Assembly: GCA_021734945.1 (NCBI GenBank)
Contig: JAIPIA010000001.1
Coordinates: forward strand, 90,243 to 154,242
Direction: 5' to 3'
DNA from: Minisyncoccota bacterium
GTDB lineage: Bacteria > Patescibacteriota > Minisyncoccia > Phycocordibacterales > CAIZLB01
DNA: 64,000 nucleotides
Each line of letters begins with the position of its first letter. Positions within the stretch are counted from its first letter, which is position 1. The translations under genes and the position numbers were made by a program. Shown one piece after another: positions 13,418 through 36,200 of this stretch. The notes beneath the pieces were generated by a model. The model was not told the origin of the DNA, ran no database searches, and saw nothing but the letters and a program-made list of their open reading frames with translations.

Positions 13418-13572
13418 GGTATATGCCTGTTGGAGTTTTCTTTTGAGCTTATTTTTTAAGGGACAGCTGCCTAGGGCTGCTTTTTACCTAATTAGCTTAT
13501 TTATACTATTACGTGTACTATATAGTCCAAATAAGTCGAATTTAAGAAAAAAATAAAAAAATCACATATATT

Positions 13573-13770
13573 ATGAAAGGAATCGTAAAAACATTGAACC
13601 CAAAGGGCTTTGGCTTTATCTCTCGAGAAGGAGAAGCTAAGGACCTATTCTTCCACTCTTCAGAGTTGGTAGGGGTAACTTTTGACGAATTGAAAGCAGG
13701 TGACGAAGTTACATTCGAAATCTCTCAAGGCGAAAAAGGTCCTGCAGCTACAAACGTAGCTCGGGCATAA
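13573..13770 (+). CDS. cold-shock protein (CspA family)
   Basis: 65 aa; KGFGFI RNP1-like and FFHSS RNP2-like motifs; about 150-nt AT-rich 5' leader as in csp genes. Confidence 0.9.
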   Translation: MKGIVKTLNPKGFGFISREGEAKDLFFHSSELVGVTFDELKAGDEVTFEISQGEKGPAATNVARA

Positions 13771-13824
13771 ATAGCTGTTAAAGCTATAAAAACTATTTAC
13801 TATTAAACTAGTAAATAACAAAAA

Positions 13825-13855
13825 ATACCTAGCGTAAAAACTAGGTATTTTTTGT
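13825..13855. terminator. bidirectional rho-independent terminator (csp / VKOR-like convergent pair)
   Basis: AAAAAATACCTAG-cgtaaaaa-CTAGGTATTTTTTG: 8-bp stem, A-run 5' and T-run 3'. Confidence 0.7.
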
Positions 13856-13866
13856 GTGGTATTTTT

Positions 13867-14259
13867 TTAATTGACTTTCTTAAGAGTAGTAAGTTGTCTT
13901 AAACTAAATATGAATATGATGATAAAGAATAATAAACCTAAAGAACATGTTGATAGCTTGAAGTTTTCTGAGACAACAAAGAAACCTGAAAAAACTACTC
14001 CAACTATAGATATACTAGTTAGAGTCTTAGTATGTGCTTGTGCTTGGATTTTTCCAATTAACCCAAGAATTGAGACAATAAACAAGATTAAAAATAGAGC
14101 AAATCCATAGTAGCAAGCAGGATAACCTAGAAAGTAGGGACATGTTTCACCAAAAGAACAGGTCTTAAGGAAAAACTTTATAGAGCTGAGATACCCTGAA
14201 AAGAGAACTCCGCCAAGACTAATAATGAATAATATTTTATTGAAAAGTTTTTGTTCCAT
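13867..14259 (-). CDS. small VKOR-like (vitamin K epoxide reductase family) membrane protein, putative
   Basis: 130 aa, 4 hydrophobic helices, Cys pairs CSFGETC and CYYG in loop regions as in the VKOR CXXC active site. Confidence 0.45.
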   Translation of the reverse strand: MEQKLFNKILFIISLGGVLFSGYLSSIKFFLKTCSFGETCPYFLGYPACYYGFALFLILFIVSILGLIGKIQAQAHTKTLTSISIVGVVFSGFFVVSENFKLSTCSLGLLFFIIIFIFSLRQLTTLKKVN

Positions 14260-14262
14260 ATA

Positions 14263-14271
14263 TGCTATAAT
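14263..14271 (+). promoter_or_regulatory. extended -10 promoter element (TGcTATAAT) upstream of cyclophilin gene
   Basis: TATGCTATAAT about 65 nt upstream of the ATG at 14338; no good -35. Confidence 0.35.
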
Positions 14272-14337
14272 ACGTCGTATTGTTTATAAATCAAATAGGT
14301 AGAAATATAAAGGAATTATAAAAGTATATAAATATTT

Positions 14338-15048
14338 ATGAAGAATTTTTTAATTTTAGTAGTGTGCGTTGTCGTAGTTGTTGTTTTAAGTTCATTTTTT
14401 TCAAAAAAGAATGATCTGACTCAAATTAATAGTGTCAACAATAGTGAAACATCTATATCGTCAACATCTACTCCAAATTCAGAGAGTACTGCCACAAGTT
14501 CATCTGTAAAAATGGTAACTAGTACTTCAACTGTAAGCATGACTTCTTCATTATCAAATAACACTAAAAAAAGTATGAACGTTACATTTAAAACAAATAA
14601 AGGAAATATTAAGATTGAACTTTTTGATAGTTTAGTTCCAAACACGACTGCAAATTTTAGAAAGCTTGCTGAAGCAGGATTTTACAATGGAGTTAAATTC
14701 CATCGAGTTATTAAAGGGTTTATGATCCAGTCAGGTGATCCACTTACAAAAGATGATAGTAAGAGTGCGGAATGGGGAACTGGTGGACCTGGTTACAAAT
14801 TCGCAGATGAAATAGGCCCTGCAAATCGTAACGATGTTGGCACTATTGCCATGGCTAATGCTGGTCCAAACACAAATGGAAGCCAGTTCTTTATTAATGT
14901 TAATCCGAACAATTTCTTGGATGGAAAGCACACGGTCTTTGGTAAGGTGGTAGAAGGAATAGATGTAGTTGCGGCTATTGAAAACACCCCAACAGATGGC
15001 AGTGACAGACCTCTTTCTCCAGTCGTCATTGAGTCAGTCTCATTCTAA
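14338..15048 (+). CDS. peptidyl-prolyl cis-trans isomerase, cyclophilin type, membrane-anchored/secreted
   Basis: 236 aa; N-terminal TM, Ser/Thr-rich linker, then cyclophilin domain (FHRVIKGFMIQSGDP, HTVFGKVVEG). Confidence 0.85.
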   Translation: MKNFLILVVCVVVVVVLSSFFSKKNDLTQINSVNNSETSISSTSTPNSESTATSSSVKMVTSTSTVSMTSSLSNNTKKSMNVTFKTNKGNIKIELFDSLVPNTTANFRKLAEAGFYNGVKFHRVIKGFMIQSGDPLTKDDSKSAEWGTGGPGYKFADEIGPANRNDVGTIAMANAGPNTNGSQFFINVNPNNFLDGKHTVFGKVVEGIDVVAAIENTPTDGSDRPLSPVVIESVSF

Positions 15049-19880: not shown

Positions 19881-20384
19881 TTGGTAATGAGACTCAAAGA
19901 TACATATAATACACAGCCGTGCCGGGGGTTTATTGCTCTGTTTTTTGTATTGTCTATGGCTTCGTTCCTTACAGTCCTTATATATAGCGTAAGTCATAAT
20001 TTTAGCTATACATTGAGTATGCTTGTAAATTTCAAGAAACTAGACAACTCTCGTTCATCTGCATTGTATTGCAAATATAAGTTACTCAATAATCTATTAA
20101 TAAATATTGAGTATATACCAGCTGTTAAAACTGATATCACGACACCTTATGGTTCAACGTGTAGGTATGACTCATATAAACATGTATCTTCACAGGAAGT
20201 TGAAGTAGTTATTGTAGGTAAAAATAAGCAGTATCAAAATATATCACCGCAGAACGAATCAAATAATGAACTTATCAACAATCCAATTTCACGAAGTATT
20301 ACGCTAAGGTATACGTACAATATTACGGGCGATTTCTATGATTATGTCAGGAAGGTTGAGGGGGCTCAGATTAGTATGGATTAA
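19881..20384 (+). CDS. hypothetical membrane-anchored protein (possible pilus-associated, lacks canonical prepilin motif)
   Basis: 167 aa; single N-terminal hydrophobic helix following RGFIALFF; sits immediately upstream of two pilin genes. Confidence 0.4.
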   Translation: MVMRLKDTYNTQPCRGFIALFFVLSMASFLTVLIYSVSHNFSYTLSMLVNFKKLDNSRSSALYCKYKLLNNLLINIEYIPAVKTDITTPYGSTCRYDSYKHVSSQEVEVVIVGKNKQYQNISPQNESNNELINNPISRSITLRYTYNITGDFYDYVRKVEGAQISMD

Positions 20385-20471
20385 TTTTTTTGATAGTTGA
20401 AATAGACCAATCCCTAAGGAAATTTATAAAAAATTTATTATGGTTTCATATAGTTCTAGTAACATCTTGTT

Positions 20472-21056
20472 ATGAAACAAAAAATAAATATGTTTAATGT
20501 TTTTAAAATTAAAAAGCATAATAAAAATTACAAATCTTATCAGGATAAAAATGATTATGGAAAAGACAGAAAATCTCGATTTTTAACTACAAAGTCTGTA
20601 GTTCGTTCTAGGGGTGGTTTTACACTTCTGGAAGTGTTGATGGTTATAGGTATTTTGGCAATATTAGCAGGAGTTGTCTTAGTTGCTATAAATCCAGCCA
20701 GACAATTTAAAATTGCACGAGATTCACAAAGAAACGCCAACGTAAGTACAATACTCAATGCTATAGGACAAAATTTGACTGACCACGGGGGTGTGTTTAC
20801 TTGTGAGGGAGTCATTACAGATTTACCGACAACAAAAACAAATATTTCGTCTGAGGAAGGTGACTTCAATGTCGCAAACTGCTTAGTCCCTGATTATATT
20901 TCTGTTTTGCCATTTGACCCCTCAAAGGAAGGTTCTAACTATACTGATGAGTTTAGTTATAATACTGGGTACAGTATAGAATCAGATGTTGAAGGACGAA
21001 TCACTATATCAGCTGATGGTGAGGTCTCAGATAGGGTAATATCAGTTACTCGATAA
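20472..21056 (+). CDS. type IV pilin / pseudopilin (prepilin-type N-terminal methylation domain)
   Basis: 194 aa; G|FTLLEVLMVIGILAILAGVV class-III signal motif with Glu+5; unusually long (about 45-50 aa) basic leader unless start is mis-assigned. Confidence 0.75.
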   Translation: MKQKINMFNVFKIKKHNKNYKSYQDKNDYGKDRKSRFLTTKSVVRSRGGFTLLEVLMVIGILAILAGVVLVAINPARQFKIARDSQRNANVSTILNAIGQNLTDHGGVFTCEGVITDLPTTKTNISSEEGDFNVANCLVPDYISVLPFDPSKEGSNYTDEFSYNTGYSIESDVEGRITISADGEVSDRVISVTR

Positions 21057-21135
21057 TATTGAGCCTGAAATGTGTTTTTATGAGTGTTTACTGATATTTC
21101 TTACCTCAACGATATGATGTATAATTAGTGTTATT

Positions 21136-21711
21136 GTGGTACTCAATTTCAATCGAAATAAAATAAAGGTCTTCAGACAAGTTAGTAAATTCAAAAAAGG
21201 CTTCACTATACTTGAACTATTAATCGTAATTGGAATTATTGGATATTTATCATCTATTGTGTTGACGAATACTCAGTCAGCACGAGATAAAGCTTACACT
21301 GCAAGAGGTCAAAAGGAATTAAATACGATATACCAAGCATTGCAAATGTATATGTCAGATAGAGGTGGGCGCATACCACCTGATGTAAGTCGTGGTTTAC
21401 CACCAGGGCTTGAGAACTATTTACCTACTGGTAAATGGCCTGATGCACCTTGGCCTGGTTCTGTGTATGACTGGGACGTTTGGGATGATCCACAGAGTTC
21501 AACTGATATCGTCCAAGTTAGTGTAAGGTTCTGCCCAGCAGGTGGAGACATTGCAACTTGTAACTTCCCAAAGGAGAGTTGGGCATCAGGTTTCGGTGTT
21601 GATAGTTCTTACTACTATTGTATACAAGGTACCTGTAGATCACATATAAACCAACCTGTAACATACCCTGGTAAGTGCGCAAACTGCTCAGGGACATCAA
21701 CCTCACCGTAG
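21136..21711 (+). CDS. type IV pilin-like protein with Cys-rich C-terminal domain
   Basis: 191 aa; KKG|FTILELLIVIGIIGYL prepilin motif; C-terminal region has 8 Cys. Confidence 0.75.
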   Translation: MVLNFNRNKIKVFRQVSKFKKGFTILELLIVIGIIGYLSSIVLTNTQSARDKAYTARGQKELNTIYQALQMYMSDRGGRIPPDVSRGLPPGLENYLPTGKWPDAPWPGSVYDWDVWDDPQSSTDIVQVSVRFCPAGGDIATCNFPKESWASGFGVDSSYYYCIQGTCRSHINQPVTYPGKCANCSGTSTSP

Positions 21712-21802
21712 TTAAAAGTTGGAACATGTTTGGTATTACAAATCCACAGATAGGGGCGCAATCTGTATTGTGAGTATAGCGTTCATAATATACAATTAGA
21801 GT

Positions 21803-22015
21803 ATGAAAAAAATATTTAGCAGTTCACGATCATATGCATTATTGGCTGTAATGTCTGTAGCTGTATTCAGTCTTGCAGTATGGGGTAAAGTAGTAGCATA
21901 TATCCAAAATGGACTTACTGATTCTGCATCTATTCGAGTATCAGAAAAGGCATCTTGTGACGAATCCTCACAAGATTCAAATACAAAATTCAGTGGTTGC
22001 AATTCAGTCCTCTAA
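21803..22015 (+). CDS. small putative secreted protein
   Basis: 70 aa with plausible signal peptide and 2 Cys; competing antisense ORF; weak. Confidence 0.3.
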   Translation: MKKIFSSSRSYALLAVMSVAVFSLAVWGKVVAYIQNGLTDSASIRVSEKASCDESSQDSNTKFSGCNSVL

Positions 22016-22031
22016 GGATTAGTATTGTCAC

Positions 22032-23684
22032 ATGAAGAAGGCCTCAGAAAAAAATAAAAGAGCAGTATTCTCTATAGGTAGCAAAGACATCAACATCTCC
22101 AACGTCGGGGATGTTGCTTTGCGTTTGCAAGAGATAGCTATTTCGAAGGAGTCACGTTCGAGACTAGTCAAAAACTTTGAGTATCTTAAAGAGAGATCTA
22201 CTAAAGAAGTCATATACGGATTAAATACTGGTTTTGGCCCGATGGCCCATATCTTTATTTCAAAAGAAAAACAGACTGAGCTCCAGTACAATCTCATTCG
22301 AAGTCACGCTGTCGGACTGGGGGATTTTATAGAACCAAGGTATGTTCGAGCAATTATGTTTATTCGATTGCAGACATTGCTAAAGTCACATTCCGCTGTG
22401 CACGGAGACACTTGTCGTTTATTGGTAGAGTTTTTAAACAGAAACATTGTTCCTATAACATACCAGCACGGATCAGTTGGGGCGAGTGGGGACTTAGTCC
22501 AACTAGCTCACATTGCAGAAGCACTCATCGGTGAAGGTAGAGTGATGTATCAGGGTAAAATTATAGAAACACAAAGATTGTTTAAAACCGTCCTAGCTAA
22601 GGATGGAATTGTCCCTTTAAAGATGCATCTTCGTGAGGGTCTGGCATTGATAAACGGCACGTCTTCGATGACAGGTATTGCTGCTTTGAATGTTCATTAT
22701 TCAAAAATACTCTTACAAAATTCTGCAAGAGCGAGTTCGTTATTATTTGAAATAGTAAATGCTTCAGAGGATTACTTTTCTAAGGAAATATCCGATGTGC
22801 GTCCTCATTATGGACAAATGAAAGTCGGGGAATTTTTCAGATCTATTCTTAAATCATCTAAAAGAATATTGCGTGAGGGTGCTAATGCCGCCAATGCTTT
22901 TGCAAAACACCCAGTGGACAGTTTGAATAAAATAAATAAAGATATTGAATCTACTAATTATGATACTCATCATATGGATCGAAGTCGGCAGGAGATTTAC
23001 TCTATTCGGTGTGCTATCCAGGTATTAGGACCTATACTAGATGAAATTAAGAATGCAACACAGGTGGTGGAGATTGAAATGAATTCTGTCACAGATAATC
23101 CTCTTGTCTTTATTGATTCAAAGATTGTTCATGGGGGAAATTTCCATGGCGATTATATATCGTATGAGATGGATAAACTTAAAATTGCTATAACAAAGTT
23201 ATCAATTTTTTCTGAACGAAAGTTAAACTTTTTAGTAAATGATAAAGTTAATAAAATTCTTCCACCATTTTTAAATACGGGTGTAGTTGGTTTAGACTTG
23301 GGTCTTCAGGGTTTGCAATTTGTTGCCACTTCTACTGTAGCAGAAAATCAATCATTATCTATGCCTGTCAGTATTCATTCTATTTCTTGTAATAACGACA
23401 ATCAGGATATTGTGAGTATGGGTACAAACTCCGCATTGATGGCTCAGAAGGTGATAGAAAATACTTTTGATGTATTAGCAATTGAACTTATGTCTATAGT
23501 ACGAGCTGTTCAGATACTTGGCATTGAATCAGATTTAAGTGTAGGTACAAAAGCTTTTTATGAGAGTATTAAGAGATATATTTCAGGCAAAGCGGATTTG
23601 GTAAAGAGAGATGAAGTACAAGCTATTGTCGATTTTCTTAAAAATCAAGAGGTTTCCGATTTTTATAATACAACGCGAAAGTAG
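22032..23684 (+). CDS. hutH: aromatic amino acid ammonia-lyase family, histidine ammonia-lyase-like (MIO cofactor)
   Basis: 550 aa; signature GSVGASGDLVQLAHIA (Ala-Ser-Gly MIO triad); selectivity region RSHAVG with Ser-His as in HAL rather than PAL/TAL. Confidence 0.8.
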   Translation: MKKASEKNKRAVFSIGSKDINISNVGDVALRLQEIAISKESRSRLVKNFEYLKERSTKEVIYGLNTGFGPMAHIFISKEKQTELQYNLIRSHAVGLGDFIEPRYVRAIMFIRLQTLLKSHSAVHGDTCRLLVEFLNRNIVPITYQHGSVGASGDLVQLAHIAEALIGEGRVMYQGKIIETQRLFKTVLAKDGIVPLKMHLREGLALINGTSSMTGIAALNVHYSKILLQNSARASSLLFEIVNASEDYFSKEISDVRPHYGQMKVGEFFRSILKSSKRILREGANAANAFAKHPVDSLNKINKDIESTNYDTHHMDRSRQEIYSIRCAIQVLGPILDEIKNATQVVEIEMNSVTDNPLVFIDSKIVHGGNFHGDYISYEMDKLKIAITKLSIFSERKLNFLVNDKVNKILPPFLNTGVVGLDLGLQGLQFVATSTVAENQSLSMPVSIHSISCNNDNQDIVSMGTNSALMAQKVIENTFDVLAIELMSIVRAVQILGIESDLSVGTKAFYESIKRYISGKADLVKRDEVQAIVDFLKNQEVSDFYNTTRK

Positions 23685-25299
23685 ATATCAATAAGATAGT
23701 TATAAATATATCCTGTCCATTACGTTCAAAGGGAGTTGTGTCTGATTTGTGAGGTACTTCAACAGTTCCGTGTAAAACTCCTTCTTTCCCAAAAGCTAAT
23801 TCTGCTTGTATGTTTCCATTATTGTCTACTATAGCTGATGGGCCAAGGCGGTTTGCGCGTATGATAGGAGTGTTGTTTTCGATTGCTCTATAAACTGTAT
23901 TTCCAAGGTTAAACTCACCCGCTCCACCGCTTGAAAAGAGCGCTTCCGAACCTATAGCAAAAATAAGATCCTTATCAGCAGCATTTGTAGTCTGAATAGG
24001 GTGTGTAACTTCTGAGCAAACAAGAGTTCCAATACTTCGATCGTATAGGAGGGTTTCCAAAGTTGAGCTTCCAGGAGAAGAGTCGATAGGTGTAGTATAC
24101 ATACCAAGTTTTTGAGAAAACATAGGAGTGTAATCTAAGAAAGGAAAAAGTAGTTTTTTTTGAGAATAACCTATAAGTACGCCATTTTTCCAAAAGTGTA
24201 TTTCGTTATAAAAGAGAGTATCTCTATATGTGGTGTTCCATGTAACAAAAATATTATCCTTTTTGATGTACAGTTTTGTCCAATTGCTAAATGTCTCGAA
24301 GTCAGTAGCGATTACTTTCTTGTTAAAGAGATTCTTGTTTTTCTTTTCGGTAATTGCTCCATTCCAAGGCGCAAATGGGTAAATGATTATTTGAGGTTTT
24401 ATCTGATCTTTCTGTGCTTCTAGTACTAATTTTTGAAGCCTAGGGAATGAAAAATAAGTTTCTCCAGTCTGTGTGTCCGTTTTCTCTTCACCAAAAGGGG
24501 ACTCAGTCTTGTCTTGATCTTGAATGAGAGATACATCAATACTAGACTTTTCATTTGTACTTTTTTCCTTTTCAATTTTTATAATCGTCAACTCATGAAG
24601 AACTAAAGCTCCAGCGATACAAAAAAATAGTACCGCTATAGATCTCTTTATATTTTTTTCATCTAGTTTGTGTACCTCCGTGGAACATGACCTGTTACTT
24701 CTCTTTATTAAATAATAAAGTATAGAGCCAATACTCATATTGATAAGTGCAATAGCAAAAATAGTCATGTACACACCACCATACTGTGCGAGTGATGCAA
24801 AAGTTGTATTATGTGCTGGATATCCAATAATGCTGTATTCGATACTAAACATCATTTTGTGTGTACACCACTCGCTAAAAGTCCAACACCCTGCTGCGTA
24901 GAATATATGTGCTACTGCGTTTTGAGATTTGAGCAATCTCAAAAGTAGAATTTGAAATGATGCAAAAATTCCGATGAAAATAAGTATAAAGAGGCTTGAT
25001 ATTCTGATCAATTCTGTAAATAAATAAGTCTCCTCTACCCAATGGAATTGCAGAACGGTTAATGACAAAATAAATGCTGTGAAAATAATACCAAAGAGAA
25101 AACCACCGAGAGCAGTCCTTTTCCATGGGTATGTATCCGAAATTCGTGTAAATAGATATATTGGAACGAGGCATATAAAACAAAGCCACCAAATCTTAAT
25201 CGGCGGAAGTGTTGCAATGACCAGGATCGCAGACACTACAGGTAAAATAAACCATTTTTGTCCATAAGATTTAATTTTGTCATATTCAAGTTTGTTCAT
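23638..25299 (-). CDS. lnt: apolipoprotein N-acyltransferase-like (Lnt family: polytopic N-terminal domain plus carbon-nitrogen hydrolase domain)
   Basis: 553 aa; 6-7 N-terminal TM helices, low-complexity linker, C-terminal CN-hydrolase region with candidate catalytic Cys (GTLVCSEV); 3' end overlaps hutH-like gene by 47 nt (convergent). Confidence 0.7.
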   Translation of the reverse strand: MNKLEYDKIKSYGQKWFILPVVSAILVIATLPPIKIWWLCFICLVPIYLFTRISDTYPWKRTALGGFLFGIIFTAFILSLTVLQFHWVEETYLFTELIRISSLFILIFIGIFASFQILLLRLLKSQNAVAHIFYAAGCWTFSEWCTHKMMFSIEYSIIGYPAHNTTFASLAQYGGVYMTIFAIALINMSIGSILYYLIKRSNRSCSTEVHKLDEKNIKRSIAVLFFCIAGALVLHELTIIKIEKEKSTNEKSSIDVSLIQDQDKTESPFGEEKTDTQTGETYFSFPRLQKLVLEAQKDQIKPQIIIYPFAPWNGAITEKKNKNLFNKKVIATDFETFSNWTKLYIKKDNIFVTWNTTYRDTLFYNEIHFWKNGVLIGYSQKKLLFPFLDYTPMFSQKLGMYTTPIDSSPGSSTLETLLYDRSIGTLVCSEVTHPIQTTNAADKDLIFAIGSEALFSSGGAGEFNLGNTVYRAIENNTPIIRANRLGPSAIVDNNGNIQAELAFGKEGVLHGTVEVPHKSDTTPFERNGQDIFITILLISTFALYYKNRKPLDF

Positions 25300-25324
25300 A
25301 ATATACTCATAACACCTCGGCAGT

Positions 25325-26650
25325 TTATTTTATGTGACTCACTATATGTCTAGTTTTCTGTGTCTGCACTGACAAATTCTCTACAAAATGTATTTCAGGT
25401 TGCAGTGCGAGACCTTTATCAACGGCTGTTTGAAGAGTTGCGTTCGCTGTAAAGTACCACTTATCAAGCAACGCCTGCAAAATCTTTTCCTCAGCTTCTC
25501 TTTTTGAAAATTCATTTATGAAATTTTTAGAAATTTCTATTACTATTTTGATTGTTTCTTTATTTGTTTGAGGTGATAAGGCTGAATAAAAATGAAATTG
25601 ATAATTTGTTCCAATATCATTTCTACATGATGAAAGAGCTTGCTCAATATCTTCGCTTTTAATCTCTAATCCATTTACACGTATCTTGTCTACGTCCATT
25701 CTGCCATCCCATTGTAGGATAGGGCAGGTTGATATGTCCCTAGCGCTATCTTTTGAATCTTCAGGATCTTGCCCAAAGATTTTAAAGAAATCACCCGTCT
25801 TGTAGCGTATGAGAGGGAAGGCTTTGTTTTGCTCCATTGTTAGGATCAATTCACCGTCTATTAACTCAGCGGCAACTACTGCTTCAGTCTGCATGTGCAT
25901 AAGGTCAATCTTACCCTGTATATCATCTATAGATGGATACATGAGTATTTGACCTATCTCACTTGATGCATACACGTTCGCAATTTTTGCGTTTGGATAT
26001 CTACTTTCTAGAACTTTACGCTTTGTTGATGTGAGTGTCTCTGAGAAGAGTACTAATAGTTTTATTTTGTGTGAGTCATATTTCTTATTAATATGATCTG
26101 CTATATGTTCAGCAAGTGTTGGGGTTGTATATATAGTATCGGCAGATGTAGCACTTGCTAAGACGGCGCTTTGTTCGAGGTTTTGATAATCGGCAAAAAT
26201 AGGTGTTAGAGGTTTTTTTGCTTCTCTGCATTGTCGTACAAAGGTGTGCCCAAAATTTTTATTTAACGCAGGATGAAGTATAAGAATATTTTGTACATCA
26301 AGACCGAGAGATGGGTCATAAAAATAGTTATCGACATGTCCCCAATAGAGTATAAGTGGTTTACCGTCTGTTGTCCCTGACGTATATGATATAAATTCAA
26401 TCTGATCTCTATTTATATAAAGTCTTTCATTTGGGTGAGTTGAAGTAATATTTTGGCGCATCAAAAACGGCAATTTTTCAAACATATTGACTAGCTCACT
26501 GCTATTGTTGAAGCTCAAGTTGTTTTTGTTTTTTAGCAAAACTTGTCCCAAAGCAATCAGATAATTTTTTTTATAAAAATCTGAACATGAGCTTTCAATA
26601 ACTCGATTGAGTAGAGCTTCTAGTTTTTCCAAGTTTGCGTAGATTATCAT
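25325..26650 (-). CDS. adenylate-forming enzyme, phenylacetate-CoA ligase (PaaK)/CapK/F390-synthetase-like
   Basis: 441 aa; AMP-binding motif YTSGTTDGKP (cf. SSGTTGKP); PaaK-like size and C-terminal domain. Confidence 0.7.
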   Translation of the reverse strand: MIIYANLEKLEALLNRVIESSCSDFYKKNYLIALGQVLLKNKNNLSFNNSSELVNMFEKLPFLMRQNITSTHPNERLYINRDQIEFISYTSGTTDGKPLILYWGHVDNYFYDPSLGLDVQNILILHPALNKNFGHTFVRQCREAKKPLTPIFADYQNLEQSAVLASATSADTIYTTPTLAEHIADHINKKYDSHKIKLLVLFSETLTSTKRKVLESRYPNAKIANVYASSEIGQILMYPSIDDIQGKIDLMHMQTEAVVAAELIDGELILTMEQNKAFPLIRYKTGDFFKIFGQDPEDSKDSARDISTCPILQWDGRMDVDKIRVNGLEIKSEDIEQALSSCRNDIGTNYQFHFYSALSPQTNKETIKIVIEISKNFINEFSKREAEEKILQALLDKWYFTANATLQTAVDKGLALQPEIHFVENLSVQTQKTRHIVSHIK

Positions 26651-26674
26651 ACTCTGAGGGTTAGAGAATTACGG

Positions 26675-27337
26675 TTAGATAATTTTCAGGAAATCATTCG
26701 TAGCGGTATCGTATTCCCAATATGCATTACTCATGTCTCCAACTTTTGAATTAACTAAAATAGTGTCTTCCTTTGATGGTATTTTTCCTATGAGTATCGT
26801 CTCGAGAGCATTAAAATATTCTGTTATGGCAGCTATGAGTGCATGAGATTTCTCTATATAGTCAGCGTACTCTGGGATGTTAGATACCTCTAACTTTGCT
26901 AACTCAGTGTTAATCTCAGAAATTCTTGAAAGGTTCTGTTCAATTTCAACTTTTATTTCTGTAATAAGATCAAAAATGCCACCCCATTCTGTTTTAATAG
27001 CTTTTTCTTTTAGTAAGAGTAGATCCTCGTAAATTATAGAATTATTACTTTTTGTAATCTCTGAAAAATTTGTTTGGATAATGTTAAAAGATTGAACTAC
27101 TGAAGCAGAACGTGTTGATTGAGTTATTATAGGAGCTTGCCTAAAGGTGAGGGAATTAATATTTACTATTTTATTGTTTGTTGGGGCACCAAAAGTGTTG
27201 AGATAATCAGCCGTTTCAGGAGTAATCAGTAATGTGGGTTTAGAAAAATAAGTCGTGTAATAATAGTGAGCGACAAGTACAGTCACTGTTCCTCCAAAGA
27301 GTATTCCAAAAAGTAATATTGTTATATTTTTTACCAT
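26675..27337 (-). CDS. hypothetical membrane-anchored extracytoplasmic protein (paralog of upstream gene)
   Basis: 220 aa; N-terminal TM, helical low-complexity ectodomain; C-terminal region ...IGKIPSKEDTILVN resembles ...LSGSVPTKEQLNDLN of neighbour. Confidence 0.5.
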   Translation of the reverse strand: MVKNITILLFGILFGGTVTVLVAHYYYTTYFSKPTLLITPETADYLNTFGAPTNNKIVNINSLTFRQAPIITQSTRSASVVQSFNIIQTNFSEITKSNNSIIYEDLLLLKEKAIKTEWGGIFDLITEIKVEIEQNLSRISEINTELAKLEVSNIPEYADYIEKSHALIAAITEYFNALETILIGKIPSKEDTILVNSKVGDMSNAYWEYDTATNDFLKII

Positions 27338-27341
27338 GATA

Positions 27342-28139
27342 TTATTTTTTATTCTCAGAATTCAATTGACTAATAATCAAGAAAAGGTTTGTCCCATCTT
27401 TTCTAAAAGGCTCTGTCTTTAGATTTAAGTCTGCAATATTTAAGTTAAGGTCGTTCAATTGTTCTTTTGTTGGAACACTACCACTAAGAAGTGTATTTAC
27501 TGAAATTAGATATTCATTGAATGAATTTGCGAAGGCTTTACTAGAGTTTATAAAACTATCTGTACTTGAAAGAATTTTTGAATCTTTTGTTGTTGATCTA
27601 TTCTCTTGGTCAAGTTTTGTTAATGAAGTAACAGCATTTTTAATCAGTACTGTGTCGTCCTTGATGGCGAGCTTAACCTGTTTCACTTCTTCAAAAACAT
27701 TTCCCCAGTTACCTGACTGTAATTTTTGAGGAAGGGCCAGCATTATAGGTAAGATAACATCATTATTGTTATTGATAAGTGTATTGAGTGAACTAACAAC
27801 ATTTTCTAAATGAAGTTTGTAGTCTGAGGTCACTGCATTTTGTAGCTCTGGAAGCACAATGGCCTGAGGTAGATTTTCTGGCTTTGTATTTTCTTTGTTT
27901 ACGTTTGTTTGAATTCCAACTTCTAGGTTTTGTTTAGGTACAACAGCAACCTCATTGTCAGTTTCTACACTTGTTTTCGTATAGATTGTATATACCGCGA
28001 ATACTGCGATACTAGTACCTACTAATGATCCTATAATGAATAATAAAATGTTTTTCATAATACGTTTGTAATTGTTTCTAGTATACCATTCTGATATACT
28101 TAAGGGTATAAGAATTGTCAACAGTACTCTAAAATACAA
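27342..28139 (-). CDS. hypothetical membrane-anchored extracytoplasmic protein
   Basis: 265 aa; N-terminal TM; same architecture as 26675..27337; first gene of a minus-strand 4-gene operon. Confidence 0.5.
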   Translation of the reverse strand: MYFRVLLTILIPLSISEWYTRNNYKRIMKNILLFIIGSLVGTSIAVFAVYTIYTKTSVETDNEVAVVPKQNLEVGIQTNVNKENTKPENLPQAIVLPELQNAVTSDYKLHLENVVSSLNTLINNNNDVILPIMLALPQKLQSGNWGNVFEEVKQVKLAIKDDTVLIKNAVTSLTKLDQENRSTTKDSKILSSTDSFINSSKAFANSFNEYLISVNTLLSGSVPTKEQLNDLNLNIADLNLKTEPFRKDGTNLFLIISQLNSENKK

Positions 28140-28141
28140 CT

Positions 28142-28636
28142 ATGGAAAAAATAAAAAATTCAATGCAAGGTCTTGAGGTGGGGAATACTAAGCAAAAATT
28201 TGTATATGGTTTATTTCTAATATTAGGAATTTTGTTTTTTGTTGCTTCATTATCAACATTTTATTCAATGTACTCTTTGATTCAAAATGTAGATCCTCTC
28301 TTTGGAATAAGTATTAAGAAGCTTGTACTCTTTAGTTTATATATTATTCTAAATTTTATAGTTGGGTATGGCTTAGTCTTTTGTAAAAGATGGATTATCC
28401 CTCTGCTTGGATTCAATGCAGGACTTATGGGGTTAACCGCACTATATAGTCAATTTGTTACCTCAAATCAGGTCAATGCTAGTGCTACTACCTCTGCATT
28501 CTGTATCTCTTTTGTTCTCTTATCAATTACATATTTGCTCAGAAAATACCTAAACGATTCATCTTATAAAAAATCTATTGACGTGTTATACATATCATTA
28601 TTGTTAATAACTTTTATTGTGACTTATTTGATTTGA
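28142..28636 (+). CDS. hypothetical 4-TM membrane protein
   Basis: 164 aa; four hydrophobic helices. Confidence 0.5.
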   Translation: MEKIKNSMQGLEVGNTKQKFVYGLFLILGILFFVASLSTFYSMYSLIQNVDPLFGISIKKLVLFSLYIILNFIVGYGLVFCKRWIIPLLGFNAGLMGLTALYSQFVTSNQVNASATTSAFCISFVLLSITYLLRKYLNDSSYKKSIDVLYISLLLITFIVTYLI

Positions 28637-28703
28637 TATACTAGTTATTATAAGTAGTCATTATTTCAAAGACTTAATACTAAGAGACTTAAAAATTTAA
28701 AAA

Positions 28704-29432
28704 ATGAATTTAAAAACGATAAAAACAAAATTCACACTGTATATACAGCTTTTTGCCCTTGTGTTAGGTGTTGCGTCATTTGTTCCGCAACGTTCAGATG
28801 CTCTTTTGATACTTCTCATTATTGACCACAATAGTTGTTGGGTGAACCTTATTTGGGGGTGTGATGGTGGCGATGGAGGAGGAGGCGGTGGTGGCGGGAA
28901 TGTGACATATACATATGAGTCAGACTATCCAGGTGGAGGAAGTAGCACATCAGGTGGAGGTGCAACAGCAAGTACTGATCCAGAAGGTAAACCCATCACA
29001 AGAATGACGGATACTCGTGATTCATTAAAGGATCCATGTACTACAGGGGATACGTGTCCTGGTGATGACTTAGGTGTATTGGCTGGAAAGATATCTGTAA
29101 ATCCTGCATACGCAAGTGCTCAAACAGATACATGTCCACTTCTCTGGACTCAAGGTGGTGATGATACAAACAGTACTGTTGTATGTAATCTCGTAACAAA
29201 TGGAACATCTCAAGTGTTGCCAAAGAGTGCTTCTGGTAAGAATACATTCAATGTGCCAATTGGTAGACACGTACTTTCATGTACACGTACAACCTCAGAA
29301 ACTGTAACTAAGTATGGTACAAAGGAGGGTGAGACCACTAAGACTGCTGTTGATTCTCAGACGAATACCTGGTCTAGTACCGAAGAGCACAATATCCGAT
29401 GCTTGGCTCGACCGAATGTAAATGAAATTTAA
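28704..29432 (+). CDS. secreted Gly-run / Cys-rich hypothetical protein
   Basis: 242 aa; signal peptide; GGDGGGGGGGGN run; 10 Cys in mature part; followed by terminator. Confidence 0.55.
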   Translation: MNLKTIKTKFTLYIQLFALVLGVASFVPQRSDALLILLIIDHNSCWVNLIWGCDGGDGGGGGGGGNVTYTYESDYPGGGSSTSGGGATASTDPEGKPITRMTDTRDSLKDPCTTGDTCPGDDLGVLAGKISVNPAYASAQTDTCPLLWTQGGDDTNSTVVCNLVTNGTSQVLPKSASGKNTFNVPIGRHVLSCTRTTSETVTKYGTKEGETTKTAVDSQTNTWSSTEEHNIRCLARPNVNEI

Positions 29433-29590: not shown

Positions 29591-29662
29591 TCCGTGGTAG
29601 CTCAGCGGTAGAGCAATCGACTGTTAATCGATTGGTCGTAGGTTCGATCCCTACCCACGGAG
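29591..29662 (+). tRNA. tRNA-Asn (anticodon GTT)
   Basis: manual fold: acceptor TCCGTGG/CCACGGA, D-stem GCTC/GAGC, anticodon stem ATCGA/TCGAT with loop CTGTTAA, T-stem GTAGG/CCTAC with loop TTCGATC, discriminator G; CCA not encoded. Confidence 0.85.
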
Positions 29663-31327
29663 CAAGTTAGGACAGACCGACGCAAAAACGTCGGTTTTTC
29701 CTTTGTCTACATCATAATTTCTAGGTTCGAACTGTGGGTTTTTGAGTTTTGCTTCTTTGAGGCCTTGAATGAGTATATCCATCCATTTTGTGTTGATAAT
29801 ACTCACTTTTTCTTCATCCCATATTAGGTTCGAACCAAAACGTGAAAGAACCTCTCTTTTGGAGTTTATATTGTCAGATTGCATAATATCCACAAACTCT
29901 TTTGTGAGGTCAGCAATGTTGATTGCTGTGTCAAACCAGCTAGCATCAACTTTCCTTCTCGAACTTGATAAGATAGTTTTGTTTAATTCCTCAAGTGACA
30001 CTTTTCCATCAGCTGGAGATAGTGCTCCATCGGCCATCATTTCGATAATCTTCTTTTTTCGTTTTTCAGCTGTCTCAACTTCGTCTTTTGCATGAGTTGT
30101 CATTGCTTGCTGTAGCTCTATATCTTTATCCTTTAATTCGTGTAGATACTTTTTACTCCACTCGACAAGACTTGGGGATAGTTGTACGTTTTCTTTTGCA
30201 TAATCAACTATGTGTCCCGTTAGTTTATTCTCACTGATGTATTTAGTCTTTAGGTAGCTTTTTCTTCTTGCAACATTGTAGTAATAAACGTATTCAAGAT
30301 ATGTAGGCTTATCTATCTCCATGATCAATTTTCCACAATCAGGACAATTTGTCTTATTTGAATATGCAAACTTTTTCTTACAATCACAAATAACCTGGAA
30401 CTTAATGTCTGGTCCTATAAAATCACCGTTAGGGGCCTTAATAAAACCGGCAAAAGTGGTTACATGTGTCTTTGTCTTTGGGAGGTTTCTGTCCGAAAGC
30501 ATTCTTAAGATCTTGTTGTGCTGTGCTTCTGTTATCACTCTCGGTAAGCTTGCGTTTAGCTCATAACGCTGCCCATTCTGATAAAAGAAACCAGCGTATA
30601 TAGGGTCTTTTAGCATCGTATGAACTCTTGAGATGGCCATAAGAGCTCCACCAATTCTTTTATGTTTTGGAGTGGTTAGTTTTAATTCTTCACGTACGTA
30701 TCGTGCCAATCTATTTGCAGACCAATTACCAGTAAGGAACATGTGAAAAATCCTTTCAACTAGCGGGTATTTGTCTTTATCGACTAGCCACTTTCTATTT
30801 CCTTTCTCTTCGGTCTTATCATTGATAAAACCGATAGCAGCGACTCCATGAGGGTAACCCTTTAATGCTTTAGTCTTTTGTCCATTTTTTACAAAGGCAC
30901 TTTTATCGTCACTATCTCTTTTTGAAAAAAGGAACTCGAGTCCTAAAGTCATTTTGTCGATAGATGTATTGTAGTAAGTTCTTGTAGGTGTTTTAACACA
31001 AAGCAGTTTACCTCTATCCATTGCATCTATAACTCTTGCTCCATCAATCGCATTACGTGCGAGACGGTTCGGATGTATAGCTAAAATTGCATTGATCTCG
31101 CCTTTGTTTATTTTTGAAATAAGGCCGTCGAAAATCTGTCGACCCACCTTAAAAGCACTTTTCTCTTCCTTCAAGTAAAGACAAACATTCAGGTCCATTC
31201 TCACTGAGAAATCAGCAAGCTCACGTTCTTGAGTCTCGATTGACTGCACCTGCTTATCTTCGGTATCACTTGATTTTCTACAATATGATCCAAAGCGAAG
31301 TTCTTTTTCATTGATATTGTTGTTCAT
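29651..31327 (-). CDS. large serine recombinase (resolvase/invertase catalytic domain, recombinase domain and zinc-ribbon)
   Basis: 558 aa; N-terminal YCRKSSDTEDKQVQSIETQ (catalytic Ser region), recombinase zinc beta-ribbon CDCKKK...CPDCGK; last 12 nt of CDS overlap tRNA-Asn 3' end. Confidence 0.85.
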   Translation of the reverse strand: MNNNINEKELRFGSYCRKSSDTEDKQVQSIETQERELADFSVRMDLNVCLYLKEEKSAFKVGRQIFDGLISKINKGEINAILAIHPNRLARNAIDGARVIDAMDRGKLLCVKTPTRTYYNTSIDKMTLGLEFLFSKRDSDDKSAFVKNGQKTKALKGYPHGVAAIGFINDKTEEKGNRKWLVDKDKYPLVERIFHMFLTGNWSANRLARYVREELKLTTPKHKRIGGALMAISRVHTMLKDPIYAGFFYQNGQRYELNASLPRVITEAQHNKILRMLSDRNLPKTKTHVTTFAGFIKAPNGDFIGPDIKFQVICDCKKKFAYSNKTNCPDCGKLIMEIDKPTYLEYVYYYNVARRKSYLKTKYISENKLTGHIVDYAKENVQLSPSLVEWSKKYLHELKDKDIELQQAMTTHAKDEVETAEKRKKKIIEMMADGALSPADGKVSLEELNKTILSSSRRKVDASWFDTAINIADLTKEFVDIMQSDNINSKREVLSRFGSNLIWDEEKVSIINTKWMDILIQGLKEAKLKNPQFEPRNYDVDKGKTDVFASVCPNLLRG

Positions 31328-32026
31328 TTTTTTGTTAATTTTAGCACGCGCCGGGATCTTTTACCTCTGATCGATAGTAAAAGTTATCCTTATATGACAA
31401 CACATCCGGGGCTTCATCACGATGTTTTCTCAAGACCCTTGATGAAGATCAGATTGATACGACTCACATCAGACGGCTGGGCAAGAGATCCCGGAGAGAA
31501 CTTGTTTTCCCAGCTTTCGCATGTGCACCTTATCAACCCTTATTTGTTTTGTAGAGCGAAGTTGTTTAACCAGATGCTCTAAATCAGCTGGTGTGGATGT
31601 GTATTTGTTCTACGCTTATGAGCTTCGGCAAGCAAGGTCAATAAGAACAAGCCAATCTGTTGTAGATCGTTTTGATCCAAGAGGTTTGACTTATCTTCGC
31701 CGATTTCTAGGCGGAGAGCCTCTTTTAAATCTTCGATTGCTTTAGTGCTCAAAGTTTTCATACTTTTGAGCCGGTTTCGTCCCAAGAACCGGCCATTCAC
31801 GGGCTAGGTTGAATGACTGGTTTTTAAGACCAAACACGTCTAGCCCATAGTATGAGTCTACGAAATAGCACTCAAAACTCCGAGATCAATATCCAAAATT
31901 ATCTTTATTTAACAACGTATTTTTTATGTGTATTGACACCACTTGCATAAAACAAGAAATACTATCTCTTTCTCTACCAATAAAAATAAGCTAGAATGTA
32001 ATTACAACTAAATAAGCCGACCTAAC

Positions 32027-32165
32027 CCATCGAGAGAAATCTCGGTGGTATGGTCAAAAGTCCAGTAACGATCAAAGAACCCATTATGTGGGGTTGTCGT
32101 TACTGGCCATGCAGGGAAACTTGCATGGAGGCCGCAAGGTCTCACTCACGTAGTGGGCTTTTTGG
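32027..32165. ncRNA. candidate structured RNA element (four consecutive hairpins, two GNRA tetraloops), function unknown
   Basis: CCATCGAGA-GAAA-TCTCGGTGG; CCAGTAACGA...(nested AACCC/GGGTT)...TCGTTACTGG 10-bp perfect stem; CCATGCA-gggaaact-TGCATGG; GAGGCC-GCAA-GGTCTC. Lies within the 720-bp non-coding region and directly upstream of a membrane-protein gene. Confidence 0.3.
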
Positions 32166-33254: not shown

Positions 33255-36200
33255 CTATTTTATATTGAGACTTTCCCACGCAGAGATGATTTGTTGCATT
33301 CTGGCTCCTGCAAGTGGCATTGATGCAAAACGAATTCTGATCACGCTGCGAATAAGTTCAATTGCTGTTCGTGCATCTCTTTCAAAGGTCAAAGCATCAA
33401 GAACGGTCATAATCAGACCTTCACGCTCCTTATCGGTAACCGGCTGCTGCCATAGTAAAAACATGAAGTCAGCTAACACACCAACGACTGATCTAAGCTC
33501 CATTTTTACACCTTTAAGCGTGGCCAAGACTTCTTTGAATGGACTTTGGTTTTCCCATTGTGCTTGCCTTGCTGCCTCAATCAGAGTAGTGCTTTCAAGA
33601 GTAACGTGCTGATATCTGCGAAGAACCAGCTTGATGACTGCATCCCAGTATTCTGAACTCGAGATCTTCTTGTCGATAAGAAAGTGCATCAAAATTGCTT
33701 GCGTCCAAACGCCGTTCACTTTGAAGTCATCGTTCTTTGCATACATTCTAGTGGCCAAGTCTTCAGCGTACAACGAGCACTCGTTTTCTTTTGCGATAAG
33801 TATTGTTTCAATTGCATACTTTCCGAGCACTTTTTCCATCTCTTCAAACTGTTGAGTCTTCGGCAATGTTTTGCATGGTGTTAGAGTACAGTTTTCACGT
33901 ATCCATTTTTTCAGAGACTCAAGTGCTTCCACTTCGGTCGCAGCTTGTTCAGGAGTTTTTTCGTCTCGAATAAAGCTACCATCCATTTTTCCTAAAGTAG
34001 TAGATCCTTTTGAGCCCATCCCTTTTCTTTCTGAAATTGCCTCGTTCAGAGTATCTATGGTTGATTGTGTTACAAGAACTTTCTTGAATTTATCTTTGAA
34101 CATTTCAAGCAAGCCAAGTTGAGATAGAGTGAGTAGGGATGTAATGTCTATGGCTATAGTGTCGTTTGTTTTGATTGAGTCGAGGGCGACTTGACGCTCT
34201 TCAAGGGTGCCAACGCAAGACCTTATACCTACGCTTGCTGAAAGGCCATACCATACATCAACAATGTTCTTGTTAATTACACTTGCGAAAGCACCTACCG
34301 TGAGTTTCATGTCAATATAAAGTTTCTCTGCTTGAGAGACATATTCACTGTGATTTGAGACAACCTGCAAAACTTTATCGAGACTCTCTTTTGTCTTTTC
34401 CTCAGAGCTTACATCTACTGAAAAGCGTTCAAGAGACTTTTGTTCGGAAAATCGTTCCGGCATCAGTCGCATAGACTCATGAAGTGCATGCACGTATTTG
34501 TTTTTGATCTCAGTGATTTTAACCACAATTTTACTGATGGCCCCTTCAGACACAACAACATCATCATTAACCGATCTGCCCAAAAGCTTTTCACCAATTC
34601 CAGAAGAAACACCTATTTCATTCAAAGCCATGCTGAGATCTTTTCGGTCTTCAAGTAGGTAGCATGTGATCTGATCAGCGTCGTTTTTCGTGTATACAGC
34701 ACTAGATATGACTGCAGTTTTTGGGATCTCAAGTAGTTTCTCAAGTTTATGGTCTTGCGCCAAAAAGATAGTCATATACTTGGCATGTGCTTCGCCGTCA
34801 TCGAAGTACTTCCGTCTCAACTGATAGGCGGCTTCGAGTGATTTTTCTACCTTATTCCTTTCAGCGTATAGCTGGGCCAACTGGAACCCCGGGTTTATAG
34901 GGAGTTGGGTTATATCAATATCTTCATCGAGAAACTTATCAAGCTTTTCAAACTCATCAAGTCGAAACCAGTGTGTAGCTAGCCGAGTTTTTATTTCCAG
35001 GTCGTCTGGATGAGATAATAAGTATTTTTCTGCAGCAGCAGAAGCAGCAGACAGATCTCCGATGTTCTCGAGAATAGATAGCTCAATCTGCAACAGAAAC
35101 AAACCCTTGTTTTCGTCTGGTAGACGCTTAAACAAGCTTAGTGCTTTATCAACCTCGTTGGCTCTGTAGTACGAATAGAAAAGATTATCTAGGTGAGGTG
35201 ACGGAACTCTGGGGTCAATTATCTTTTCATACAAAGGCCATGACTGCGCGTATTTTTGCATGTTATACAAGTCGTCTGCCAAATTGATGACAATGTGAGC
35301 AGGGGTCATGTCAGTAATATATCCGTAGGCCTCATCAAGTAGATTGCCCGCCGCTTCCTTGTTACCAGCAAACCTTTCGGTACGGCTTGCGGCAATTAAA
35401 TTCTCGATATTCGTTGGATCAAACGATCTAAGTTTATCGACGATTTTTTTTGCTTTCTCATAATTTTTCTCCTTGATATAAACATGAACAAGCATGCGTT
35501 CTTCCTCGGATCGTAATTCAGGCGGGAGGTCGTCGCTGAACGATTTGATCAGTGTCTCCCGTGCCTCTACTAGGTTATTTTCATCAAAATAGATACCAGC
35601 AAGAACATATGCGGCTTCTGGAACCTCTTTTTTACCTACCACAGTCTTGAGTATCTCAATGGCCTGCTTTCTCTCTCCCTTTGAGTAGAGCATGAACGCC
35701 TGCTGTTTCAACATTGCCGCATCTTCAGGCTGGTAGCGCACCGCGCTGGCCATATCAGCATTAGCCTTATCCATTTCACCTAGTAGCTTATAAGCTGTTG
35801 CTCGATTGGCGTACCAAGAGGGACGATAGCTTATACTTTCAGAATTAGAAAGACTGTCTATGGCTTCCGAAAGTAATTGAACAGCTTTTTCTATTTTTTC
35901 CTTGTCTTCTGGGATAAGTTGCATATTGTTTGCGACTTCATGCTTCTGCATAAAAGTCTCAAGGATCGTGGATGCAAGATTTGCTTGAATGTCAGGGTTC
36001 TTCTTTCTGATTTTTATAGAGTCTTCCATTGCAATCTCAAGCCACTTTATAGATGATGCGAGATCACCGCGTTCACGTGCTGCATGCGCAATGGTAAACG
36101 CCACATCTTCTGACTTTCGAAACTCTGCTGGTATATCCTTCAGTATATCTTCAAGCGCTTGAGTCTTTGGGGAGCAGTTTATCAGAATGCCGATTGCTCG

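Follow-up and report, generated by a model that had tools for sequence, protein, structure and literature searches.

What is the function of a relative of apolipoprotein N-acyltransferase (Lnt) whose gene stands beside that of an acid-activating ligase? The question is raised by a stretch of 64,000 nt from a Minisyncoccota bacterium (contig JAIPIA010000001.1, positions 90,243 to 154,242 of the forward strand), here called the window, to whose positions all coordinates refer unless another locus is named. The organism belongs to the ultra-small Patescibacteria of the candidate phyla radiation (CPR), and to our knowledge the envelopes and host-attachment surfaces of these bacteria are almost uncharacterised. 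In textbooks, Lnt performs the last step of lipoprotein maturation, and a Glu-Lys-Cys triad is treated as defining the enzyme. The seven-gene cluster described here (22032–29432) points to an undescribed cell-surface decoration rather than to ordinary lipoprotein maturation. We tentatively favour the reading that it is a CPR-specific envelope-modification cluster, in which a tyrosine-derived aromatic acid would be activated in the cytoplasm and then, on the outside of the membrane, attached to an exported acceptor.

Four minus-strand genes, separated by gaps of 4, 24 and 25 nt, form the core of the cluster. In the order of transcription, parB (27342–28058) encodes a membrane-anchored protein of 238 amino acids (aa); parA (26675–27337) encodes its membrane-anchored paralog of 220 aa; the third gene (25325–26650) encodes a cytoplasmic adenylate-forming ligase of the PaaK family, with 441 aa; and the fourth (23638–25299) encodes the Lnt-like membrane protein of 553 aa. 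A preliminary description of the window had listed these four co-directional, tightly spaced open reading frames (ORFs), and all of them are present where it placed them. It had started the first gene at the TTG at 28139, giving an ORF of 265 aa; judged from the homologues, all of which begin at the ATG at 28058, as does the NCBI annotation, the start is almost certainly the latter codon. The divergent intergenic region (28059–28141) holds a promoter-like TTGACA-17 nt-TATATC on the minus strand (28121–28093), within the former TTG extension of parB. The site was read directly from the sequence; it was not listed by a consensus scanner for promoters and terminators, the output of which was no better than that for shuffled sequence.

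The proposed four-gene unit holds as a core, and the cluster is larger than had been described. It also includes, on the plus strand, an aromatic amino acid ammonia-lyase gene (22032–23684, 550 aa), which is convergent with the Lnt-like gene and overlaps it by 47 nt at the 3′ end, and a divergent operon. The latter consists of mem164 (28142–28636, plus strand), its first gene, encoding a polytopic membrane protein with about five transmembrane (TM) helices, and p242 (28704–29432, plus strand), encoding a secreted protein of 242 aa that is a candidate acceptor. With these, the cluster comprises seven genes, and it is conserved in CPR bacteria.

This conservation was followed in 25 non-redundant loci with a relative of the ligase (34–73% identity), from Paceibacteria, Kaiserbacteria, Nomurabacteria and other Patescibacteria metagenome-assembled genomes, the ORFs of which were classified by phmmer and jackhmmer searches seeded with the window proteins. 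Conservation of the arrangement, which the preliminary description had proposed to check, is evident: the ligase and Lnt-like genes are adjacent in all 25 loci, and a parB-like four-helix-bundle protein is encoded in 20. The ammonia-lyase occurs in 14 loci; a mem164-like membrane protein in 13; an ICMT/PEMT-like membrane methyltransferase in 12; and a UbiA-family protein in six, sometimes with a polyprenyl synthase and a family 2 glycosyltransferase (GT2). The methyltransferase and UbiA genes are absent from the cluster of the window. The pairing of ligase and Lnt-like genes holds down to an Lnt-like identity of 28% (locus L056), while no Lnt-like gene adjoins the outgroup ligases (L008, L028) and no ligase gene adjoins a canonical Lnt relative (L057). 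Such an arrangement is far beyond chance.

The position of the lyase gene varies. It is convergent with the pair in the window, L010 and L012–L014; directly after the pair on the same strand, and co-operonic with it, in L020, L021 and L024; upstream in L007; and in an operon with GT2, UbiA and polyprenyl synthase genes in L004. Because the linkage is kept through these four different arrangements, the lyase probably shares a function with the pair, and its company suggests the nature of the acyl group. In the literature, nothing was found on Lnt with PaaK-type ligases, nor on Lnt or ammonia-lyases in CPR/Patescibacteria. Some public contigs that bear the cluster are labelled Patiriisocius (Flavobacteriaceae; L015), Acidimicrobiales (L018) and KSB1 (P0049); these are probably mis-binned CPR contigs rather than cases of horizontal transfer. 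The GC content of L018 is 40%, which looks too low for Acidimicrobiales.

The Lnt-like protein has the domain architecture of Lnt. It matches PF20154 (LNT_N; 70 bits, residues 23–188) and PF00795 (CN_hydrolase; 28.9 bits, residues 354–513), followed by a C-terminal hydrophobic helix at 530–545; the predicted layout is seven TM helices, an extracytoplasmic CN-hydrolase domain and TM8. The distribution of charges, read by eye, agrees with the topology of Lnt (Lys-rich N-terminus, loop 198–218 with a charge of +7, C-terminal KNRK). The protein aligns end to end with TIGR00546, at a score of 112 bits that is below the equivalog cut-off of 132.9.

Alignments were made with Escherichia coli Lnt (L029) and 25 relatives from the loci, then with 42 database relatives, and then with 140 representatives from an exhaustive search. 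They delimit a sharply defined clade of about 60–75 representatives at 50% identity, otherwise 25–35% identical, in which the equivalents of Lys335, Cys387 and Glu389 (E. coli numbering) are invariant and that of Glu267 is lost. The Glu-Lys-Cys triad, Glu267-Lys335-Cys387, is the accepted catalytic apparatus of Lnt (PMC5500888, PMC10313180). At the position of its Glu, the window protein (IIIYPFAPW) and most members of the clade have Phe; Y, L, D, Q, H, G, N, S, T and I are also found there, and E only once. The motif of the clade is IIYPF(A/S)PW, against IIWPESA in Lnt; Glu343 is always replaced by Asp and Tyr388 by Ser; and the PF-DY loop is invariant over the representatives. Canonical Lnts (WPET / CYE / PFGEY) match only at E values of about 1e-11 to 1e-14.

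Because the catalytic Glu267 is lost and the score is below the equivalog cut-off, the protein is classed, by these sequence criteria, as not a canonical Lnt. The Lnt-like N-acyltransferase of the preliminary description stands in its architecture of LNT_N plus CN_hydrolase; it is not a normal Lnt, Glu267 being replaced across the whole clade. The strict retention of Cys387, Lys335 and Glu389 together with this loss suggests changed chemistry in an enzyme that is still active, and not decay. Neither lgt nor lspA was seen among the scanned ORFs of the window, which is annotated only in part.

Two further observations concern this family. An intermediate group (P0192–P0258) has '(L/I/M)PEN', with the Glu kept, and 'CSE' instead of 'C(Y/F)E', and its scores lie between those of the Glu-less clade and the canonical Lnts; this may be the sister lineage that gave rise to the Glu-less clade. 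In L019, two tandem Glu-less Lnt-like genes (11227–14372; YPF and YPY variants) follow the ligase gene, and two UbiA genes and a GT2 gene come after them.

The ligase is 100% identical to NCBI K9M11_00565, and the window belongs to a Candidatus Pacebacteria metagenome-assembled genome. Its matches to AMP-binding and PaaK models are weak (46.8 bits with the PaaK model TIGR02155, the cut-off of which is 646.3), as are those to DltA and FlxY (22 bits for the latter). SGTTxGKP, YASSE, RYxTGD and the C-terminal Lys432 are conserved in its family, the invariant residues of the alignment being S91, G92, P98, Y227, S230, E231, R282, Y283, T285, D287 and K432. The AlphaFold2 (AF2) model, with a predicted local distance difference test score (pLDDT) of 90, has the PaaK fold, and its top Foldseek matches are BT_0428, PaaK1/2, ClxA, AjiA1, NatL2 and HCL, at 13–18% identity; those to 2Y27 and 4R1M have E values of about 1e-22, and the TM-score with the family is about 0.65. 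The matched structures of known substrate act on aryl acids, except HCL, a 2-hydroxyisobutyryl-CoA ligase. None of the 25 loci contains paa genes, and no benzoxazole genes lie near the ligase.

The PaaK-type matches, the ANL motifs and the fold bear out the earlier assignment of a PaaK-like adenylate-forming ligase. Its grouping with housekeeping PaaK or CapK, which the preliminary description had named as a result that would speak against it, was not found; with 46.8 bits against 646 and no paa context, the ligase is, by sequence and model, a distinct subgroup of the PaaK family. The earlier suggestion that a dedicated ligase hints at an unusual, non-phospholipid acyl donor is supported as well, because the pairing with the Lnt-like gene is invariant, the ligase is not a housekeeping PaaK, and canonical Lnt relatives have no ligase.

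The ammonia-lyase matches Pfam Lyase_aromatic with 497 bits. The best NCBIfam model is the FlxA tyrosine ammonia-lyase (TAL) model NF053541, at 608.6 bits (cut-off 700). The enzyme has the ASG that forms the 4-methylideneimidazole-5-one (MIO) cofactor; motif 1 is 'SH', as in histidine ammonia-lyase (HAL); and motif 2 is 'NQD', the Gln of which is typical of TAL and phenylalanine ammonia-lyase (PAL), where HAL has Glu. GSVGASGDL, the catalytic Tyr loop IYGLNTGFG and DNQDIVSMG are present in it and in all cluster lyases. FlxA, with the same combination of motifs, is a proven TAL that deaminates tyrosine (and phenylalanine) and not histidine (PMC3992019). The nearest relatives outside CPR (about 45% identity) adjoin ketoreductase, ketoacyl-synthase and LpxL-like genes, not hut genes, and sit in aryl-polyene/flexirubin-type clusters. 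A reciprocal metagenome scan with the lyase retrieved no new CPR loci, only such non-CPR relatives at about 45% identity, without ligase or Lnt-like genes. By its signatures and nearest relatives, the window enzyme is classed as a FlxA-type, tyrosine/phenylalanine ammonia-lyase-like protein. Identity as the histidine ammonia-lyase HutH is ruled out by the scores (hutH 419 against FlxA 608 bits), by the Gln of motif 2 and by the lack of hut genes near the lyase or its relatives; nor does 'SH' in motif 1 mark a HAL, since SgTAM and FlxA carry it too.

The p242 protein has a signal peptide with an AxA-like end (..PQRSDA), then a second hydrophobic stretch with the pattern D-x4-C-x6-C (LLILLIIDHNSCWVNLIWGC). 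Its family shares this N-terminus: a second hydrophobic stretch of 20–37 residues with [D/E]-x3-5-C-x5-6-C, followed directly by a Gly/Ser-rich (poly-Gly) linker. Stretch and linker read LLILLIIDHNSCWVNLIWGC-DGGDGGGGGGGG in the window protein and VVDATMCDVEIVFNC-DDGPGGGSGGGG in its L055 counterpart. The linker leads into Cys-paired, beta-rich repeats, and the proteins end in ..(Q/K/R)E(V/F/I). Such an N-terminus is encoded in 14 of the 25 cluster loci and in L055, always beside the cluster and usually just downstream of a mem164-like gene; besides the window gene, members include those at L001 5185–5928, L003 5190–5993, L007 3872–4864, L013 3584–4369, L015 570–1523 and L055 2047–2736, a list that is not exhaustive. 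A regular-expression search found the motif neither in 889 ORFs of control loci nor in the rest of the window, and p242 has no Pfam or NCBIfam match. This N-terminal design is apparently undescribed.

The preliminary description had seen candidate substrates of the module in the two membrane-anchored paralogs. These are real paralogs, though distant: parA and parB match by BLASTP at E = 1e-12 with 23% identity and were recovered by jackhmmer as one family. An N-terminal TM anchor is present in both, followed in parA by an extracytoplasmic helical domain, and neither has any Cys, so that a lipobox, the presence of which had been left to check, is absent. The parB model consists of the TM anchor, a variable disordered linker and a four-helix bundle (helices 78–115, 121–156, 160–190 and 198–231; pLDDT 80–94). 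No significant fold match was found in the PDB (best E = 0.16); likeness to 4HB chemoreceptor sensor domains or ApoE was considered and rejected as not significant, leaving a generic four-helix bundle. A word-indexed search for parB homologues gave three proteins; the family was recovered by jackhmmer on the loci, and the alignment behind the AF2 model is shallow. The duplication is confined to the lineage of the window (window, L001/L002) and to L007. Because hardly any residue is invariant in the family, and neither a Cys or Lys nor any N-terminal feature is conserved, the paralogs are weak candidates for substrates; in the models, they look like accessory extracytoplasmic four-helix-bundle proteins. 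As judged from its conserved N-terminus, p242 is the better candidate and the most likely acceptor.

No Pfam or NCBIfam match was obtained for mem164. Its family is found in 13 of the 25 loci and in L055, nearly always divergent from the parB-ligase-Lnt operon, and conserves only 'YG...(R/K)xW'. A divergent LspA or other intramembrane protease is unsupported, as there are no such matches and no conserved acidic, His or Ser residues. The protein may be a helper in the membrane crossing of the acyl group.

In the envelope-modification reading, the FlxA-type lyase would deaminate tyrosine (or phenylalanine) to p-coumarate (or cinnamate), and the PaaK-family ligase, the family and motifs of which are established, would adenylate this acid. 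The acyl group would then reach the outer leaflet on a carrier; this step, which we infer, is the main gap in the model. The most economical carrier would be a membrane lipid that bears the group as an O-ester, formed directly from the acyl-AMP. Such a carrier is conceivable because two PaaK-family enzymes that act on small molecules acylate a hydroxyl directly from acyl-AMP: NatL2, which forms its ester without coenzyme A (PMC7204872), and ClxA, also independent of coenzyme A. Lnt passes an acyl group, by way of a Cys thioester, to an amine on the outside of the membrane; by analogy with this ping-pong mechanism, the Lnt-derived enzyme would take the acyl group onto its invariant Cys and pass it to an amine or thiol of the acceptor. 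The putative acceptor would be the p242 family, with its signal peptide, [D/E]x3-5-C-x5-6-C hydrophobic stretch and poly-Gly, and the four-helix-bundle paralogs and mem164 would serve as accessory subunits. In other lineages, the ICMT/PEMT-like methyltransferase, UbiA, polyprenyl synthase and GT2 could further methylate or prenylate the aromatic group. The aromatic residues that replace the general base, together with the dedicated ATP-dependent ligase, are in keeping with an aromatic acyl donor, one more strongly activated than a phospholipid ester.

Several points weigh against this reading. The genomic evidence is strong and internally consistent, and the chemistry is deduced from it rather than observed. 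ATP-dependent activation is cytoplasmic, but the CN-hydrolase domain is predicted outside, and no carrier protein, MBOAT or flippase was identified in the surveyed loci. Without its catalytic Glu, the Lnt-like protein could instead be inactive. The match of the ligase to FlxY is weak, and the lyase stays below the FlxA equivalog cut-off, in a family in which substrate preference cannot be read reliably from sequence (PMC3992019). The lyase is also missing from 11 of the 25 loci, several of which have full 10-kb flanks (L006, L019), so the aromatic acid is not a universal substrate unless the lyase is encoded elsewhere. The p242 motif, for its part, was defined by eye and regular expression on few sequences and was surveyed in these loci and controls.

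The strongest alternative, possible though on the unlikely side, is that the product is a membrane-bound small molecule, for example a tyrosine-derived phenolic lipid (a prenylated or methylated hydroxycinnamate or hydroxybenzoate, or an N-hydroxycinnamoyl lipid), with the Lnt-like enzyme acylating the amine of a lipid head group or serving as a scaffold. Genes for UbiA, a polyprenyl synthase, GT2 and the ICMT/PEMT-like methyltransferase are found repeatedly within the cluster, a closely related UbiA gene lies elsewhere in the window (45875–46729), and the nearest relatives of the lyase act in aryl-polyene/flexirubin lipid pigment pathways. However, UbiA is found in only six of the 25 loci and the methyltransferase in 12, with neither in the window's cluster; ketosynthase, acyl carrier protein (ACP) and dehydratase genes are lacking; and the secreted motif protein and the four-helix-bundle protein are left unexplained. 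A phenolic lipid is compatible with protein modification.

The envelope-modification reading can also be carried further, into an unlikely but specific form: CPR secreted proteins would bear a new N-terminal sorting signal, made up of the signal peptide, the hydrophobic [D/E]x3-5-C-x5-6-C stretch and the poly-Gly of the p242 family, and be hydroxycinnamoylated at the outer face by a Glu-less Lnt descendant fed by a PaaK-type ligase, as an aromatic substitute for lipoprotein N-acylation. The hydroxycinnamoyl group would be derived from tyrosine, and it may be methylated or prenylated in some lineages.

It is quite unlikely that the enzyme is simply the N-acyltransferase for lipoproteins of the organism. 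The ligase would then activate scavenged fatty acids anew, so that the lysophospholipid left by Lnt is acylated again, as Aas and LplT do in E. coli, and the lyase would be an unrelated neighbour. The full Lnt architecture and predicted topology, the retained Cys and Lys, and the absence of the lyase from 11 of the 25 loci would agree with this, and recycling of acyl groups would be valuable to CPR bacteria, which lack fatty-acid synthesis. Against it stand the loss of Glu267 across the clade and the score below the Lnt cut-off, a ligase with the fold of PaaK and not of the FadD/Aas type, the lack of a PlsC-type acyltransferase, the co-operonic lyase of several lineages, and the canonical Lnt relative that adjoins no ligase.

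A dead pseudo-enzyme, acting as a membrane dock or receptor for the ligase or the four-helix-bundle proteins, so that the pairing would reflect a structural complex, is very unlikely. In its favour, distant members differ in the residue that stands in place of Glu267 (F, Y, L, D, Q, H, G, N, S), and only the C-terminal two-thirds of the Pfam CN_hydrolase model is matched; yet Cys387, Lys335, Glu389 and the PF-DY loop are invariant over representatives that are otherwise so divergent, and strict retention of the nucleophile and of Lys335 is unexpected in a dead enzyme. Least probable is a scavenging module, in which the CN-hydrolase domain would strip acyl groups from host-derived lipids or lipoproteins and the ligase would re-activate the acids after uptake: most enzymes of the nitrilase superfamily are hydrolases, host lipids are essential to CPR bacteria and the pairing is invariant, but hydrolysis is the reaction least easily reconciled with a missing general base, neither the PaaK-type ligase nor the co-operonic lyase is accounted for, and no transporter is conserved in the cluster.

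Comparison with known systems places the cluster, as far as profile scores, residues and gene context allow, outside Lnt, PaaK and Dlt, with a lyase that is FlxA-like, below threshold and in another context. With Lnt of E. coli and Pseudomonas aeruginosa (5N6H, 5N6M, 6NWR; TIGR00546), the Lnt-like protein shares the eight-TM LNT_N and the CN-hydrolase domain between TM7 and TM8, and the retained Cys387, Lys335 and Glu389; its charges, as read by eye, would agree with an N-in/C-in topology that puts the catalytic domain outside, and by analogy, it probably works via a thioester acyl-enzyme. It differs in 'YPF(A/S)PW' against 'WPE(S/T)A', in the changes of Glu343 to Asp and Tyr388 to Ser and in the score of 112 against 132.9 bits, and its gene always adjoins that of an adenylate-forming ligase, whereas canonical Lnt genes do not. 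The ligase shares with the PaaK family (PaaK1/2, BT_0428, NatL2, AjiA1, ClxA) the fold, the P-loop, YxxSE, RYxTGD and the C-terminal Lys; it differs in its low identity to solved members (13–18%), its score of 46.8 against 646 bits and its partner, a membrane acyltransferase.

For photoactive yellow protein (PYP), TAL and p-coumaroyl-CoA ligase (pCL) provide activated p-coumarate that ends as a thioester on a Cys of the protein, and the lyase and ligase pair of the cluster resembles this classical route to an activated hydroxycinnamate. Dlt D-alanylation (DltA-DltC-DltB-DltD) likewise involves cytoplasmic adenylation of a small acid and its transfer across the membrane to an envelope acceptor; in contrast, the surveyed loci have no Pfam families for the carrier DltC, the MBOAT DltB or DltD, and the membrane enzyme of the cluster is from a different superfamily. 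The initiation of flexirubin synthesis by FlxA/FlxY of Chitinophaga pinensis (PMC3992019) also relies on a lyase whose motif 1 is HAL-like and whose motif 2 is TAL/PAL-like, together with an acid ligase that is atypical and not of the 4CL type. However, the ligase of the cluster matches FlxY only weakly (22 bits), and the downstream enzyme of the cluster is Lnt-like and extracytoplasmic. Because the cluster has no ketosynthase, ketoreductase, dehydratase or ACP genes, and the CPR loci thus differ from the flexirubin/aryl-polyene context, no polyene extension is expected.

What makes the cluster significant is that an entire clade of Lnt-like proteins retains the nucleophile without the Glu, and that its genes are firmly tied to one for an enzyme that activates acids with ATP, and frequently to one for a tyrosine ammonia-lyase. 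Provided that the clade is active, the Lnt scaffold is able to work with donors other than membrane phospholipid, and CPR bacteria would build a surface modification from an amino acid, not from lipids that they cannot synthesise. The p242 family is a concrete, testable candidate substrate, with a mass shift that can be sought in existing metaproteomes. For the Glu-less clade, automated annotations as 'apolipoprotein N-acyltransferase' in CPR genomes are probably wrong.

Directly after the cluster, a probable genomic island extends from 29591 to about 45400, with a GC content of 0.40–0.42 against about 0.35 elsewhere. It begins with tRNA-Asn (29591–29663), into which a large serine recombinase gene (29651–31327, minus strand) reaches with its 3′ end, and includes a LOOT RNA (32019–32143, 89 bits), a gene for a 1425-aa TPR-GreAB-C-PIN protein (33255–37532), a histone-deacetylase-like gene, a permease, a MerR/TipAS regulator and a zeta-toxin-like kinase. 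No att-type direct repeats were found flanking the putative island after the tRNA-Asn. In the relatives L001 and L003, about 3 kb is all that separates a SIMPL gene from the p242 homologue; in the window this gene is at 47268–47954, which indicates an insertion of about 16 kb there. The UbiA-family prenyltransferase gene at 45875–46729 (minus strand; Pfam UbiA, 68.9 bits) matches the hidden Markov model of the cluster-encoded UbiAs at E = 2e-67; separated from the cluster by about 16 kb of island-like DNA, it is possibly, though uncertainly, a detached component. It stands back to back with a gene for a TspO/MBR tryptophan-rich sensory protein (46789–47187, plus strand).

On the other side, an Acyl_transf_3-family membrane acyltransferase (12224–13417, 75.7 bits) is encoded about 10 kb upstream of the cluster, with no established relation to it. 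Upstream of the lyase and on its strand, the region 19881–22015 holds two type IV pilin-like genes (20472–21056 and 21136–21711; N_methyl motif) and an ORF for a 70-aa protein with a signal peptide (21803–22015). The order of the pilin and signal-peptide ORFs is kept in L001–L003, and pilin or prepilin-peptidase genes lie within 8 kb in L004 and L006; this linkage may simply reflect shared ancestry.

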